Source: Escherichia coli (GTDB lineage Bacteria; Pseudomonadota; Gammaproteobacteria; Enterobacterales; Enterobacteriaceae). From it: a stretch of 64,000 nucleotides of DNA. Under the pieces are notes generated by a model, which was not told the origin of the DNA, did not search any database, and saw only the letters and a program-made list of their open reading frames with translations. Positions 23,214 to 29,863 of this stretch are shown here, piece after piece. Where the stretch lies: the NCBI RefSeq assembly GCF_048403405.1, contig NZ_CP183129.1; one strand, given 5' to 3'. Made by a program: the position numbers and the translations under genes. Each line of letters begins with the position of its first letter. Position 1 is the stretch's first letter.

Positions 23214-23579
23214 GTCGACAGGGAGTCAGACAACGAAGTGAACATCAGGATGATGACACTTCTGAAGGACACACCAGGATGGTGTTTCAGGGAAAGGCTT
23301 CTGGATGAAGCGAAGAGGATGACGCAGGACGCGTTAAAGGACACCTCCAGGATGGAGAATGAGAACCGGTCAGGATGATTCGGTGGGTCAGGAAGGCCAG
23401 GGACACTTCAGGATGAAGTATCACATCGGGGTGGTGTGAGCAGGAAGCAATAGTTCAGGATGAACGATTGGCCGCAAGGCCAGAGGAAAAGTTGTCAAGG
23501 ATGAGCAGGGAGCAACAAAAGTAGCTGGAATGCTGCGAAACGAACCGGGAGCACTGTGAATACAGTGCTCCCTTTTTTT
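23214..23579 (+). ncRNA. csrB: CsrB sRNA (CsrA-sequestering RNA)
   Basis: Begins GTCGACAGGGAGTCAGACAACGAAG; at least 8 CAGGATG/AGGATG motifs plus further GGA motifs; ends with hairpin gggagcactgtgaatacagtgctccc plus 7-nt T run; located between syd and yqcC as in E. coli. Confidence 0.92.
23547..23579 (+). terminator. csrB intrinsic terminator
   Basis: Perfect hairpin gggagcactgt / acagtgctccc followed by TTTTTTT. Confidence 0.85.
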
Positions 23580-23624
23580 ATTCCTGCTATCCTTCGCGGC
23601 AGTTTTTCTTATTGAGGTTGCTTT

Positions 23625-25203: not shown

Positions 25204-25637
25204 TATGTTCAGCGAGCGGTAAATGCCGTTTTAGCGGTGCTGAATCGAATCTTTTCAGGCAAATGCCAGTAAAAACTGCTTCATAGCGCGGATTTTTACT
25301 GGCGTTTGCCTGGAGTCAAGCGATCCATTTCATACTCTTCTTTATTTCTTCGTTTTAACCCTTCCTTTCTTGTTCTTGTTTTCATTTCCGTGAAGTGGAT
25401 TCCACCGTCCAGGGCTAATGCCAAAATCGGGCCTCATTGAACGCATTAATGTTGTGTTGTTGCACGGTGAGCCGCTATGGCGCGCTTTTTATACTGCTAT
25501 TGCCAGATATAAACACGCGCCGTATTCGGCGAACGACCTATAAAAACGGCAAAAAACACCCTACGTCACCTCTGATTTCCTGGCGATGTCGCAGTCCAGA
25601 GTGAGCGTGGCTAACGCGAATTTTCAGGAGTGCAACA

Positions 25638-26990
25638 ATGAGTTCTTTAAGTCAGGCTGCGAGCAGTGTGGAAAAACGCACAAATGCTCGTTACTGGATA
25701 GTGGTGATGTTGTTTATCGTCACATCCTTCAACTACGGCGACCGCGCTACGCTCTCTATCGCCGGTTCGGAAATGGCCAAAGATATCGGCCTTGATCCTG
25801 TGGGAATGGGCTATGTGTTCTCTGCCTTCTCATGGGCTTATGTTATCGGGCAGATCCCTGGTGGTTGGTTGCTGGATCGTTTTGGTTCAAAACGCGTCTA
25901 CTTCTGGTCGATCTTTATCTGGTCGATGTTTACCTTGCTGCAAGGCTTCGTCGATATCTTTAGTGGATTCGGCATTATCGTTGCCCTGTTTACTCTGCGC
26001 TTCCTGGTCGGGCTTGCTGAAGCGCCATCTTTCCCCGGCAACAGTCGCATTGTTGCGGCCTGGTTTCCGGCGCAGGAAAGGGGAACGGCGGTGTCGATTT
26101 TTAACTCCGCTCAATACTTCGCAACGGTGATCTTCGCGCCGATTATGGGCTGGCTGACGCATGAAGTGGGCTGGTCACACGTCTTCTTCTTTATGGGCGG
26201 TCTGGGGATTGTCATCAGCTTTATCTGGTTGAAAGTCATCCACGAGCCAAATCAACATCCGGGGGTAAATCAGAAAGAGCTGGAGTACATCGCCGCGGGT
26301 GGCGCGCTGATCAATATGGATCAGCAAAACACCAAAGTTAAAGTGCCGTTCAGCGTGAAGTGGGGGCAGATCAAACAGCTGCTCGGGTCACGGATGATGA
26401 TCGGCGTTTATATCGGTCAGTACTGTATCAACGCCCTGACTTACTTTTTCATTACCTGGTTTCCGGTTTATCTGGTGCAGGCGCGTGGGATGTCGATTCT
26501 GAAAGCGGGCTTTGTGGCTTCCGTTCCGGCGGTTTGCGGTTTTATCGGCGGTGTGCTGGGTGGGATTATTTCCGACTGGCTGATGCGCCGCACGGGATCG
26601 CTGAACATTGCGCGTAAAACACCGATCGTAATGGGCATGTTGCTGTCGATGGTGATGGTGTTCTGCAACTACGTCAACGTTGAGTGGATGATCATCGGCT
26701 TTATGGCGCTGGCCTTCTTCGGTAAGGGCATCGGGGCGCTGGGTTGGGCAGTAATGGCAGATACCGCGCCAAAAGAGATCAGCGGTCTTTCCGGTGGCCT
26801 GTTCAACATGTTCGGTAACATTTCTGGCATCGTCACGCCAATCGCAATTGGTTATATCGTTGGCACGATTGGCTCGTTTAATGGGGCGCTGATTTATGTT
26901 GGTGTTCATGCCTTAATCGCGGTACTGAGCTACCTGGTGCTGGTGGGCGATATCAAGCGTATCGAGCTGAAACCTGTCGCGGGGCAATAA
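25638..26990 (+). CDS. gudP: Glucarate/galactarate MFS transporter
   Basis: 450 aa, MFS; matches GudP. Confidence 0.93.
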
Positions 26991-26991
26991 G

Positions 26992-28332
26992 ATGACGACA
27001 CAATCCAGTCCTGTTATTACTGATATGAAAGTCATTCCGGTCGCCGGGCACGATAGCATGTTGCTTAATATTGGTGGGGCGCATAACGCATATTTCACTC
27101 GCAATATTGTGGTACTCACCGATAACGCCGGGCATACCGGCATTGGTGAAGCGCCAGGCGGAGAGGTGATTTATCAGACACTGGTCGATGCTATTCCGAT
27201 GGTGTTGGGCCAGGAAGTTGCGCGCCTGAATAAAGTGGTTCAGCAGGTGCATAAAGGTAATCAGGCAGCCGATTTTGATACCTTCGGCAAAGGTGCCTGG
27301 ACTTTTGAATTGCGCGTTAATGCCGTGGCGGCGCTGGAAGCCGCCTTGCTTGACCTGCTAGGTAAGGCGCTGAATGTTCCGGTCTGCGAACTGTTGGGGC
27401 CAGGCAAGCAACGCGAGGCTATTACCGTCCTCGGTTATCTGTTTTATTTCGGTGATCGGACCAAAACCGATCTTCCTTATCTGGAAAATACGCCGGGCAA
27501 CCATGAGTGGTATCAGTTGCGCCATCAGAAAGCGATGAACAGCGAAGCCGTTGTGCGTCTGGCGGAAGCCTCACAGGATCGCTACGGCTTTAAAGATTTC
27601 AAACTTAAGGGCGGCGTGTTACCTGGCGAGCAAGAAATCGACACTGTTCGTGCATTGAAGAAACGCTTCCCGGATGCGCGGATTACCGTTGATCCCAACG
27701 GTGCATGGCTGCTTGATGAAGCCATTTCTCTGTGCAAAGGGCTGAATGATGTTCTTACCTATGCCGAAGATCCATGCGGAGCAGAACAGGGGGTCTCCGG
27801 ACGTGAAGTGATGGCGGAGTTTCGGCGGGCGACCGGCTTGCCCGTCGCGACTAATATGATCGCCACCAACTGGCGCGAAATGGGCCATGCGGTGATGCTC
27901 AATGCGGTAGATATTCCACTTGCCGATCCGCACTTCTGGACGCTTTCCGGTGCAGTCCGCGTGGCGCAGCTTTGCGACGACTGGGGGCTGACCTGGGGCT
28001 GCCATTCCAACAACCATTTCGATATCTCTCTGGCGATGTTTACCCATGTGGGCGCGGCGGCACCGGGTAATCCTACCGCTATCGATACCCACTGGATTTG
28101 GCAGGAGGGCGATTGTCGCCTGACCCAAAATCCGCTGGAGATTAAAAACGGAAAAATTGCCGTTCCTGATGCGCCCGGTCTGGGCGTGGAACTGGACTGG
28201 GAACAGGTACAAAAGGCACATGAGGCCTATAAACGTCTGCCTGGCGGTGCGCGTAACGACGCGGGCCCGATGCAGTACCTGATCCCCGGCTGGACCTTTG
28301 ACCGTAAACGTCCCGTTTTCGGCCGTCATTGA
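26992..28332 (+). CDS. gudX: Glucarate dehydratase-related protein (enolase superfamily paralog)
   Basis: 446 aa [24 protein letters not shown]...; paralog of the downstream gudD. Confidence 0.92.
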
Positions 28333-28352
28333 TTTTGAAAAAGGACATAAAT

Positions 28353-29693
28353 ATGAGTTCTCAATTTACGACGCCTGTTGTTACTGAAATGCAGGTCATC
28401 CCGGTGGCGGGCCATGACAGTATGCTGATGAATCTGAGTGGTGCACACGCACCGTTCTTCACGCGTAATATTGTGATTATCAAAGATAATTCTGGTCACA
28501 CCGGGGTAGGGGAAATTCCCGGCGGCGAGAAAATCCGTAAAACGCTGGAAGATGCGATTCCGCTGGTGGTGGGTAAAACGCTGGGTGAATACAAAAACGT
28601 TCTGACGCTGGTGCGTAATACATTTGCCGATCGTGATGCCGGCGGGCGCGGTTTGCAGACATTTGACCTGCGGACCACTATTCATGTGGTTACCGGGATA
28701 GAAGCGGCAATGCTGGATCTGCTGGGGCAGCATCTGGGGGTTAACGTGGCATCGCTGCTGGGCGATGGTCAACAGCGTAGCGAAGTCGAAATGCTCGGTT
28801 ATCTGTTCTTCGTCGGTAATCGCAAAGCCACACCGCTGCCGTATCAAAGCCAGCCGGATGATAAATGTGACTGGTATCGCCTGCGTCACGAAGAAGCGAT
28901 GACGCCGGATGCGGTGGTGCGCCTGGCGGAAGCGGCATATGAAAAATATGGCTTCAACGATTTCAAACTGAAGGGCGGTGTACTGGCCGGGGAAGAAGAA
29001 GCAGAATCTATTGTGGCACTGGCGCAACGCTTCCCACAGGCGCGTATTACCCTCGATCCTAACGGTGCCTGGTCGCTGAACGAAGCGATTAAAATTGGTA
29101 AATACCTGAAAGGTTCGCTGGCTTATGCAGAAGATCCGTGTGGTGCGGAGCAAGGTTTCTCCGGGCGTGAAGTGATGGCAGAGTTCCGTCGCGCGACTGG
29201 CCTGCCGACCGCAACCAATATGATCGCCACCGACTGGCGGCAGATGGGCCATACGCTCTCGTTACAATCCGTTGATATCCCGCTGGCGGATCCGCATTTC
29301 TGGACGATGCAAGGTTCGGTACGTGTGGCGCAAATGTGTCATGAATTTGGCCTGACCTGGGGTTCACACTCTAACAACCACTTCGATATTTCCCTGGCGA
29401 TGTTTACCCATGTAGCCGCTGCTGCACCGGGTAAAATTACTGCTATTGATACGCACTGGATCTGGCAGGAAGGCAATCAGCGTCTGACCAAAGAACCGTT
29501 TGAGATCAAAGGCGGGCTGGTACAGGTGCCGCAAAAACCAGGATTGGGCGTAGAAATCGATATGGATCAGGTGATGAAAGCCCACGAGCTGTATCAGAAA
29601 CATGGGCTTGGTGCGCGAGACGATGCGATGGGAATGCAGTATCTGATTCCTGGCTGGACGTTTGATAACAAGCGCCCGTGCATGGTGCGTTAA
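28353..29693 (+). CDS. gudD: D-glucarate dehydratase
   Basis: 446 aa starting [25 protein letters not shown] at the ATG (28353) with RBS; the track start is an upstream TTG. Confidence 0.93.
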
Positions 29694-29863
29694 GACAGAA
29701 AACCAAAACCGGCTTCATAAGAAGTCGGTTTGAGATTACTGACGAAGTGGTTTACGGGGCCGGTTTTCCCCCTCACCCTCTCCCCGGAGGGGCGAGGGGA
29801 CTGTCTGTGCTGCTCCCAGCATTGGCATTGGACGGAACCTATTTTGACTCGACAAGACGTCCA

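Follow-up and report, generated by a model that had tools for sequence, protein, structure and literature searches.

The two genes examined here were identified as gudX and gudD, which with gudP make up the hexarate-catabolism operon gudP-gudX-gudD of E. coli. There is virtually no doubt about this identification, and the pair belongs to the well-known, textbook content of the E. coli genome. Judging from the comparisons made here, GudX appears to be a working dehydratase whose specificity has changed, not a dead copy. As a whole, we find it fairly probable that GudX is an active acid-sugar enzyme of altered specificity that is likely associated with GudD. GudX occurs in nearly every E. coli and in three orders of Gammaproteobacteria, yet it has gone more than 25 years without an assigned function despite solved structures. 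Its function is a modest specialist question that holds no surprise; the use of glucarate and galactarate matters to the growth of Enterobacteriaceae in plant lesions and in a gut that is inflamed or has been treated with antibiotics.

Layout and identity of the locus

The window, i.e., the whole stretch of 64,000 nucleotides that was analysed, carries the following features at this locus:

25204..25637, + strand: yqcA-gudP intergenic region of 434 bp (gap between ORFs), presumed promoter/regulatory region of the gudP-gudX-gudD unit
25638..26990, + strand: gudP (ORF, RefSeq name gudP), MFS glucarate/galactarate transporter, 450 aa
26992..28332, + strand: gudX (ygcY, b2788 homologue; ATG ORF, RefSeq gudX), glucarate dehydratase-related protein, 446 aa
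28333..28352, + strand: gudX-gudD spacer with the gudD ribosome-binding site (AAGGA), sequence TTTTGAAAAAGGACATAAAT, followed by ATG
28353..29693, + strand: gudD (RefSeq gudD; TIGR03247), D-glucarate dehydratase, 446 aa
29706..29731, + strand: hairpin read from the sequence, AAACCGGCTTC-ATAA-GAAGTCGGTTT, likely a transcript-end structure between the convergent gudD and barA

The first-pass annotation had described gudX and gudD as tandem 446-aa paralogs downstream of gudP, which was confirmed by the ORFs, the RefSeq annotation and BLASTP. GudX and GudD align over their full length with 63% identity and 77% positives (586 bits, E=0), which places their paralogy far beyond chance. The gudP product was matched by TIGR00893 (536.5 bits, cutoff 395) and also by Pfam MFS_1. 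The end of gudP and the start of gudX are 1 nt apart, and 20 nt separate gudX from gudD. The start of gudD given by RefSeq is the ATG at 28353, with the AAGGA Shine-Dalgarno sequence 8 nt upstream; the TTG at 28329 is merely the first in-frame start codon in the ORF listing. No promoter-like or terminator-like site was found in a scan of the gudX-gudD spacer.

The yqcA-gudP gap presumably regulates gudP-gudX-gudD. A scan of its + strand gave no consensus sigma-70 site, which fits the expectation for an activator-dependent promoter, and the homologous PgudTYD promoter of Salmonella has been described as CdaR-controlled (PMC11077982). The putative transcript-end hairpin begins 12 nt past the gudD stop codon, and its stem is retained in K-12 with other stem bases (CCGGCTC...GGAGCCGG). 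A terminator scan gave no call at this hairpin because of its short T-tail.

The 2,702-bp gudX-gudD stretch is 100% identical to that of E. coli strain 4621, where the genes are annotated gudX/gudD. It was found at a coverage of at least 80% in 5,403 of the 5,426 complete E. coli genomes, and with at least 99% identity in just 19 of 5,422. The idea that the locus is unusual in this strain was rejected, because the flanking genes diverge from K-12 by a similar 1-2.5%, as expected for ordinary lineage divergence.

Age and maintenance of the duplication

The pair had been called a retained duplication, which is right but understated, since the two genes diverged long ago and strong purifying selection acts on each of them. 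Synonymous sites between gudX and gudD are saturated (overall pS 0.68, dS about 1.8), pS is not under 0.48 in any 30-codon window, and the longest nucleotide run common to the two genes is 20. Gene conversion was considered as the source of protein blocks with 87-90% identity and was rejected, with pS of 0.50-0.74 and pN of 0.06-0.09 in these blocks. GudX formed a monophyletic, deep-branching clade in an NJ tree, which is approximate. The saturated synonymous sites, the lack of gene conversion and the deep GudX clade together indicate that the duplication is ancient. Among seven orthologue pairs, dN/dS was 0.017-0.083 for gudX and 0.024-0.113 for gudD, and the conservation per region was similar in the two clades. 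Purifying selection on GudX is as strong as that on GudD.

Of the 43 loci with a GudX-type gene, 38 have gudD immediately after gudX, and the order gudP-gudX-gudD is kept across Enterobacterales, Orbaceae and Pasteurellaceae. In Dickeya solani, gudP-gudX-gudD are co-directional and lie upstream of garL-garR-garK; in Dickeya and Pantoea stewartii, garD lies upstream of gudP in divergent orientation. GudD-type genes only were found in 37 loci of Pseudomonas, Bradyrhizobium, Bacillus and others. The GudX-type gene of Halomonas adjoins kdgD and that of Paludibacterium follows garK and gudP, both with no GudD within 6 kb, although one may exist elsewhere in either genome. The natural variants comprise this stand-alone Halomonas gene, a gudX::gudD hybrid in Pantoea stewartii and an independent pair in Lucifera. 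The 583-690-aa "fusion" proteins atop the homology search, all of them single-member clusters, were set aside as probable sequencing or assembly errors: in two (P0002, P0003) a frameshift at the end of gudX lets translation continue in the frame of gudD, and one (P0001) has internal duplications.

Active site and function of GudX

Both proteins have the two-domain architecture of the enolase superfamily, i.e., an N-terminal capping domain and a C-terminal (beta/alpha)7-beta barrel. GudX was matched by PF02746 (MR_MLE_N, 35.9 bits) and PF13378 (MR_MLE_C, 173.5 bits). GudD was matched by PF13378 (163.7 bits); its N-domain went unreported at E<=0.001, yet it can be aligned to GudX over the full length. 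The assignment of GudD as glucarate dehydratase holds, as its score of 899.3 bits exceeds the 828.7-bit cutoff of the TIGR03247 equivalog and it departs from GlucD in PDB 1ec7 (1030.6 bits) solely by S171K and E394Q. GudX scored 742.9 bits, below the same cutoff, and is therefore not filed as glucarate dehydratase; it is named "glucarate dehydratase-related protein" in K-12 and, generically, "enolase C-terminal domain-like protein" in PGAP. The first-pass annotation had considered its function unclear, a view that a clear published activity would overturn; no activity assignment was found in the full-text literature searched.

Pairwise alignment, proposed earlier as a check, revealed that the catalytic residues are kept in both proteins. 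At all 19 catalytic and ligand-contact positions, the 22 GudX and 37 GudD-type proteins carry the same residue, with Lucifera T103 as the sole exception. These include D235, E260, E266 and N289, of which we take Asp235, Glu260 (in the E-D-P motif) and Asn289 to be the Mg2+ ligands of GlucD, with Glu266 also considered. The K-x-K motif (Lys205/Lys207) and the His339-Asp313 dyad, presumably the general bases of GlucD, and Asn341, presumably an additional catalytic residue, are likewise invariant in both clades, which places GudX and GudD in the GlucD subgroup. We assume for the 19 residues the roles given in GlucD structural papers and UniProt; that of Asn341 alone is corroborated here, by the GlucD mutants in PDB 1jdf (N341D) and 1jct (N341L).

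The two clades are discriminated by 14 alignment columns, namely L28I, S29G, R88H, +G89, Q102W, D105E, a deletion at 109, H111N, T114A, Q140K, D294N, S322A, S338C and G418P. In GudX numbering the clade signature comprises I27, G28, W103, E106, N110, A113, N293, A321, C337 and P417 together with a 2-residue deletion after R108, and the GudX of the window carries all of it. When placed on the GlucD residues, the fixed differences appear to cluster in two active-site capping loops and beside His339. Remodelling seems to have affected the 20s loop, which adjoins Asn27/His32, and the part of the 100s loop that surrounds Thr103. Engineered GlucD proteins in the PDB, S29G/P34A and P34A (3pwg, 3pwi), convert GlucD to the GudX consensus and thus lend independent support to the signature as one of specificity.

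According to Hubbard et al. 1998, GlucD is reportedly efficient in converting D-glucarate and L-idarate to 5-dehydro-4-deoxy-D-glucarate, and the purified related protein is said to be strongly impaired on both. We know of no better GudX substrate reported since then, and the impairment is no functional assignment of GudX. The pathway scheme of a Salmonella study from 2024 assigns no role to ygcY (PMC11077982). In S. Paratyphi A, ygcY decays jointly with gudT, gudD and garD, which suggests a pathway linkage of GudX (PMC11077982). Weak GudD or GarD alleles of S. Typhi are not offset by its ygcY, which is apparently intact (PMC11077982), so in this organism GudX does not dehydrate glucarate or galactarate efficiently. 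In a Tn-seq experiment on galactarate in Dickeya solani, the whole gudP-gudX-gudD-garLRK block was conditionally essential and the annotated garD was not. This was rejected as evidence for galactarate activity of GudX, because polarity explains the whole flagged block. The non-essentiality of garD is the one point of this experiment that polarity leaves unexplained.

GudX is thus an ancient paralog of the GlucD subgroup, kept intact by selection, with a full set of Mg2+-binding and acid/base residues. As the most likely mechanism we infer that it is catalytically competent in vivo, as a dehydratase or epimerase of acid sugars that depends on Mg2+; it would draw on the gudP-imported substrate pool and feed the same 5-dehydro-4-deoxyglucarate stream as GudD. 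Its preferred substrate or stereochemistry would be other than D-glucarate, a shift that the remodelling of both capping loops and the changed residue beside His339 may have brought about. GudX probably also associates physically with GudD, because one crystal entry, PDB 4gyp, contains both.

It is possible, though we hold it only tentatively, that GudX-type proteins form an isofunctional family of their own, made up of dehydratases for hexarates or related diacid sugars, whose physiological substrate has never been offered to the enzyme, with the 20s and 100s loops conferring specificity. Galactarate, or a further hexarate stereoisomer or lactone, would be candidate substrates, and activity on galactarate would explain why garD was not essential in the Dickeya solani experiment. 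In a variant of this proposal, activity would appear only in a GudD-GudX hetero-oligomer.

An unlikely explanation is that GudX is a non-catalytic, pseudoenzyme-like partner, which assembles with GudD and tunes its stability, activity or regulation. The joint presence in PDB 4gyp, the adjacency to gudD in most GudX-type loci, the close spacing of the two genes with no terminator between them and the weak in vitro activity reported for GudX are consistent with such a role. So is the lack of rescue of defective GudD by intact ygcY in S. Typhi (PMC11077982). However, pseudoenzymes usually lose catalytic residues, whereas GudX keeps all 19 in 22 genera and has dN/dS equal to that of GudD. In addition, its fixed differences appear to flank substrate-contacting residues rather than to be scattered over the surface, and GudX-type genes without an adjacent GudD exist in Halomonas and Paludibacterium.

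We doubt that GudX is a redundant, low-efficiency D-glucarate/L-idarate dehydratase that serves as a backup or in another kinetic regime (subfunctionalisation). GudX has operon, fold and catalytic residues in common with GudD and reaches 742.9 bits on the glucarate dehydratase model, but this lies under the curated equivalog cutoff. Likewise, S. Typhi with a working transporter still manages to grow on glucarate, with a lag, in spite of its weak GudD (PMC11077982), but weak GudD is not compensated there, and a fixed 14-position signature with two capping-loop indels is unexpected for mere redundancy at such phylogenetic depth. Finally, decay of the gudX duplicate towards a pseudogene, which would suit the missing functional assignment and the generic PGAP name, is already refuted by the intact 446-aa frame, the low dN/dS, the invariant catalytic residues and the retention of gudX in nearly all E. 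coli genomes and across three orders.

For the favoured reading of GudX as an active enzyme of altered specificity, the comparative evidence names loop residues and natural variants, which makes the question of function more directly testable.

Comparison with known systems

The pair resembles gudX (b2788, ygcY) and gudD (b2787, ygcX) of the K-12 gudPXD operon in genes, order, lengths and flanks, and the order queF-syd-csrB-yqcC-truC-yqcA-gudP-gudX-gudD-barA is common to K-12 and the window. gudX is 97.1% identical to K-12 at the nucleotide level, with five amino acid changes (A2T, D58E, I153F, V164L, F268V), and gudD is 96.2% identical, with the two changes that also separate it from 1ec7. 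The repeat element in the gudD-barA spacer of the window is not the one in K-12.

The GudX of the window matches PDB 4il0 (1037 bits) and chain C of 4gyp (1035 bits), an entry that combines a GlucD sequence with a related-protein sequence. E. coli 4il0 and 4gyp chains C/D represent the K-12 allele of GudX and differ from the GudX of the window by the same five amino acids. Further structures of glucarate dehydratase-related proteins are 3n6h, 3n6j and 3pfr, and 3n6h bears the GudX signature (W, E, the deletion, N, A, C337, N293, P417). No citation of these entries was found among the literature searched, and all five (4il0, 4gyp, 3n6h, 3n6j, 3pfr) look like unpublished structural-genomics deposits.

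L-talarate/galactarate dehydratase (NF047820, cutoff 500 bits) shares the superfamily with GudX but belongs to a different subgroup; GudX scored 63.9 and GudD 36.3 bits, and neither is a member. Its chemistry is of the same kind as that of the GudX superfamily, in which a Mg2+-stabilised enolate is formed and water is then lost from the diacid sugar by beta-elimination. GarD, the UxaA-family galactarate dehydratase (TIGR03248), is from an unrelated protein family and is not encoded within the gudX-gudD coordinates, but it is a functional neighbour with a common pathway and regulon and an identical product. GudD belongs to the GlucD family (TIGR03247; 1ec7, 1ec8, 1ec9, 1ecq, 1bqg, 4g8t). GudX shares with this family the fold, the arrangement of domains and all catalytic and ligand residues. 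It is set apart by the 14 positions that are fixed by clade, among them a deletion and an insertion of two residues each in the region of the 100s loop.

Gene structure and setting of the gudX-gudD pair

The genes concerned are annotated in RefSeq as follows.
25638-26990, + strand, gudP
26992-28332, + strand, gudX (446 aa)
28353-29693, + strand, gudD (446 aa)

The first-pass annotation had described two tandem 446-residue paralogs downstream of gudP, and the ORF listing, RefSeq and protein comparison showed its coordinates and description to be exact. The identity of the feature as the gudX-gudD pair is certain. GudX and GudD align over their full length with 63% identity and 77% similarity (586 bits). 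The window is E. coli chromosomal DNA; its 2,702-base stretch at 26992-29693 recurs with 100% identity in strain 4621 and several others, and 5,422 of the 5,426 complete E. coli genomes gave a match. The three genes are flanked by yqcA on one side and convergent barA on the other, and a scan of the sequence revealed no promoter-like or terminator-like signals among them. A hairpin, kept in K-12 with altered stem bases, lies 12 nt 3' of the gudD stop. The ORF lister's 454-residue form of GudD begins at an in-frame TTG upstream of the annotated ATG at 28353; a ribosome-binding site, AAGGA, lies 8 nt 5' of this ATG.

The gudD frame continues upstream past the gudX stop without interruption (28329-28352), so that a one-base frameshift in the final codons of gudX yields a GudX-GudD read-through fusion. 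Two such database proteins, P0002 (690 aa) and P0003 (650 aa), each form a single-member cluster and probably reflect sequencing errors. Between gudD and barA the window has 170 bp, against 231 bp in K-12, whose spacer holds a REP-like element (GCCGGATAAGGCG...CGCATCCGGC); in its place, at 29732-29863, the window carries a distinct, GC-rich inverted element (CCCCCTCACCCTCTCCCCGGAGGGGCGAGGGG). The CsrB small RNA gene lies at 23223-23582 (+), between syd and yqcC (full-length match to Rfam RF00018, 382.9 bits) and a few kb from barA; BarA acts as sensor kinase in BarA-UvrY, the system that activates csrB.

Divergence and active-site residues of the two paralogs

The duplication is ancient: when gudX and gudD were aligned by codon, their synonymous sites proved saturated (pS 0.68, dS ~1.8), with a pN of 0.24. 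pS was at least 0.48 in every 30-codon window, and in-register nucleotide identity ran for 20 bases at most. Divergence was fastest in the N-terminal capping domain, over codons 61-120, and codons 256-300 and 346-375 encode blocks that are 87-90% identical in protein. Gene conversion was rejected as the cause of these blocks because pS there is 0.50-0.74 while pN is 0.06-0.08; judged from the codon comparison, they are kept by purifying selection. Against the window genes, seven orthologue pairs gave dN/dS values of 0.017-0.083 for gudX and 0.024-0.113 for gudD, and region-by-region conservation was alike in the two proteins across 21 matched taxa, which excludes gudX as a decaying copy or pseudogene. 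Long-range protein identity drops somewhat faster in GudX (for example 71% in Cricetibacter, versus 82% for GudD).

GudD scored 899.3 bits on NCBIfam TIGR03247, the glucarate dehydratase equivalog (cutoff 828.7 bits), and differs from crystallised E. coli GlucD (PDB 1ec7) only by S171K and E394Q, in line with its earlier assignment as glucarate dehydratase. GudX scored 742.9 bits, under the cutoff, which explains both its PGAP name, "enolase C-terminal domain-like protein", and its K-12 name, "glucarate dehydratase-related protein". A GudX crystal structure is on deposit (PDB 4il0), as is another GudX-type protein (3n6h, 3n6j, 3pfr). One entry, 4gyp, contains both the GlucD and the related-protein sequence and is reportedly titled as a GlucD-GlucDRP heterotetramer.

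We take the ligand-contact and catalytic set of GlucD to be Asn27, His32, Thr103, Tyr150, Phe152, Lys205, Lys207, Asp235, Asn237, Glu260, Glu266, Asn289, Asp313, His339, Ser340, Asn341, Asp366, His368 and Arg422. The window GudX, checked for catalytic residues as the first-pass annotation had suggested, keeps this whole set, which is invariant in 22/22 GudX and 37/37 GudD-type proteins except for Lucifera at Thr103. Asn341 is the sole position whose role the analysis corroborated, through PDB mutants (1jdf, N341D; 1jct, N341L). This invariance argues against GudX being a non-catalytic partner of GudD, a role that we consider unlikely.

Fourteen alignment columns are fixed differently between the same 37 GudD-type and 22 GudX proteins (GudD to GudX: L28I, S29G, R88H, inserted Gly89, Q102W, D105E, a deleted residue at 109 with a two-residue gap in all, H111N, T114A, Q140K, D294N, S322A, S338C and G418P). 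Nine of them lie within the two capping-domain loops bearing Asn27/His32 (20s loop) and Thr103 (100s loop), and S338C adjoins catalytic His339. Deposited GlucD variants carry P34A (3pwi) or S29G and P34A (3pwg). Position 29 is Ser in 36/37 GudD-type versus Gly in 21/22 GudX proteins, and position 34 is Pro in 36/37 versus Ala in 19/22. Each substitution therefore turns GlucD into the GudX consensus, and structural biologists had evidently already targeted the 20s loop as the seat of the difference; a literature search found no paper describing 3pwg or 3pwi. The fixed 14-column signature, together with the score under the equivalog cutoff, argues against a merely redundant, weak glucarate dehydratase, which we regard as quite improbable.

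The window GudX carries Phe153 and Val268 in place of the Ile and Phe of K-12. Neither residue occurs at its position in any other of the 22 GudX-clade sequences compared, which show I/V/L at 153 and F/Y at 268; position 153 comes two residues after ligand-contact Phe151, and 268 three after Glu265.

Distribution and natural variants

A scan of one genome per species yielded 80 loci, in which each GlucD-family ORF was classified. A GudX-type gene was found in 43; in 38 of them a GudD-type gene comes immediately after it, usually with gudP upstream. The genera were Citrobacter, Enterobacter, Kosakonia, Pantoea, Erwinia, Mixta, Dickeya, Pectobacterium, Brenneria, Serratia, Rahnella, Rouxiella and Budvicia, and beyond them Orbaceae and Cricetibacter (Pasteurellaceae). 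The 37 remaining loci had GudD-type genes only (Pseudomonas, Bradyrhizobium, Variovorax, Bacillus, Paenibacillus, Acinetobacter and others). In a neighbour-joining tree, an approximate method, the GudX proteins formed a single deep clade outside the enterobacterial GudD clade.

Halomonas eurihalina (L043:4866-11635) has a lone basal GudX-type gene with the loop signature, immediately 3' of kdgD and flanked by a second kdgD nearby. KdgD is 5-dehydro-4-deoxyglucarate dehydratase, which consumes the GlucD product. No GudD-type gene was found within 6 kb, and the three ORFs downstream had no NCBIfam matches. In Paludibacterium, garK and gudP precede a gene of the GudX clade proper, again with no gudD within 6 kb. 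These stand-alone genes also speak against a non-catalytic partner and argue that GudX-type proteins can be enzymes by themselves, although GudD may lie elsewhere in these genomes.

In Pantoea stewartii subsp. stewartii CCUG 26359 (L033:6001-7338), gudP and garL-garR-garK enclose a single GlucD-family gene, a gudX::gudD hybrid. Before residue ~285 its informative sites split 68 X-type to 13 D-type, and after ~293 they split 36 D-type to 2 X-type; control GudX proteins were X-type throughout. The crossover in the most conserved block, with one gene length lost, is as expected from homologous recombination of tandem copies, and the hybrid fits such an origin. Lucifera butyrica (L060:4512-7323) has an independent tandem GlucD-type pair, 76% identical, 3' of a transporter. 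Its upstream copy carries Q102H, T103E, D105N, a one-residue deletion and H111N in the 100s loop, plus S29C, and looks like convergent remodelling of the loop altered in GudX. The 100s loop thus seems to diverge repeatedly among GlucD paralogs.

Possible role of GudX

Hubbard et al. of the Gerlt laboratory reportedly described in 1998 (Biochemistry 37:14369) a ~65%-identical "GlucDRP" strongly impaired in GlucD dehydration and epimerisation. A full-text literature search found no activity assignment for GudX. A 2024 mBio Salmonella study placed ygcY (gudX) within the CdaR-controlled gudT-ygcY-gudD operon and gave it no pathway role (PMC11077982), in agreement with the first-pass remark that GudX function is unclear. 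In S. Paratyphi A, ygcY is degraded along with gudT, gudD and garD; S. Typhi, whose ygcY is apparently intact, nevertheless depends on S. Typhimurium GudD or GarD to grow normally on glucarate/galactarate (PMC11077982). This lack of compensation also weighs against a redundant weak glucarate dehydratase.

In Dickeya solani, Tn-seq listed gudP, gudD, gudX and garL as galactarate fitness genes (PMC10202176). However, gudP-gudX-gudD-garL-garR-garK are contiguous and co-directional there (PMC10202176 supplement), and all six, with cdaR, were flagged conditionally essential on galactarate (PMC10202176 Table S2 sheet 6). Polarity on garLRK therefore accounts for the gudX signal, and we rejected it as evidence of galactarate action. 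The annotated galactarate dehydratase garD (DS0823_v1_1595) is absent from the galactarate list (PMC10202176), which may leave room for a second galactarate dehydratase in D. solani or reflect a miss by the calling method.

The best-supported reading, which we favour while placing the uncertainty in the mechanism, is that GudX would be a catalytically active member of the GlucD subgroup whose substrate-capping loops have changed, supplying the pathway that GudD supplies and probably associating with GudD. The gudX-gudD pair is real and was already known, and the first-pass reading of it is correct; what the analysis leaves is a sharper hypothesis that can be tested on a long-standing orphan enzyme.
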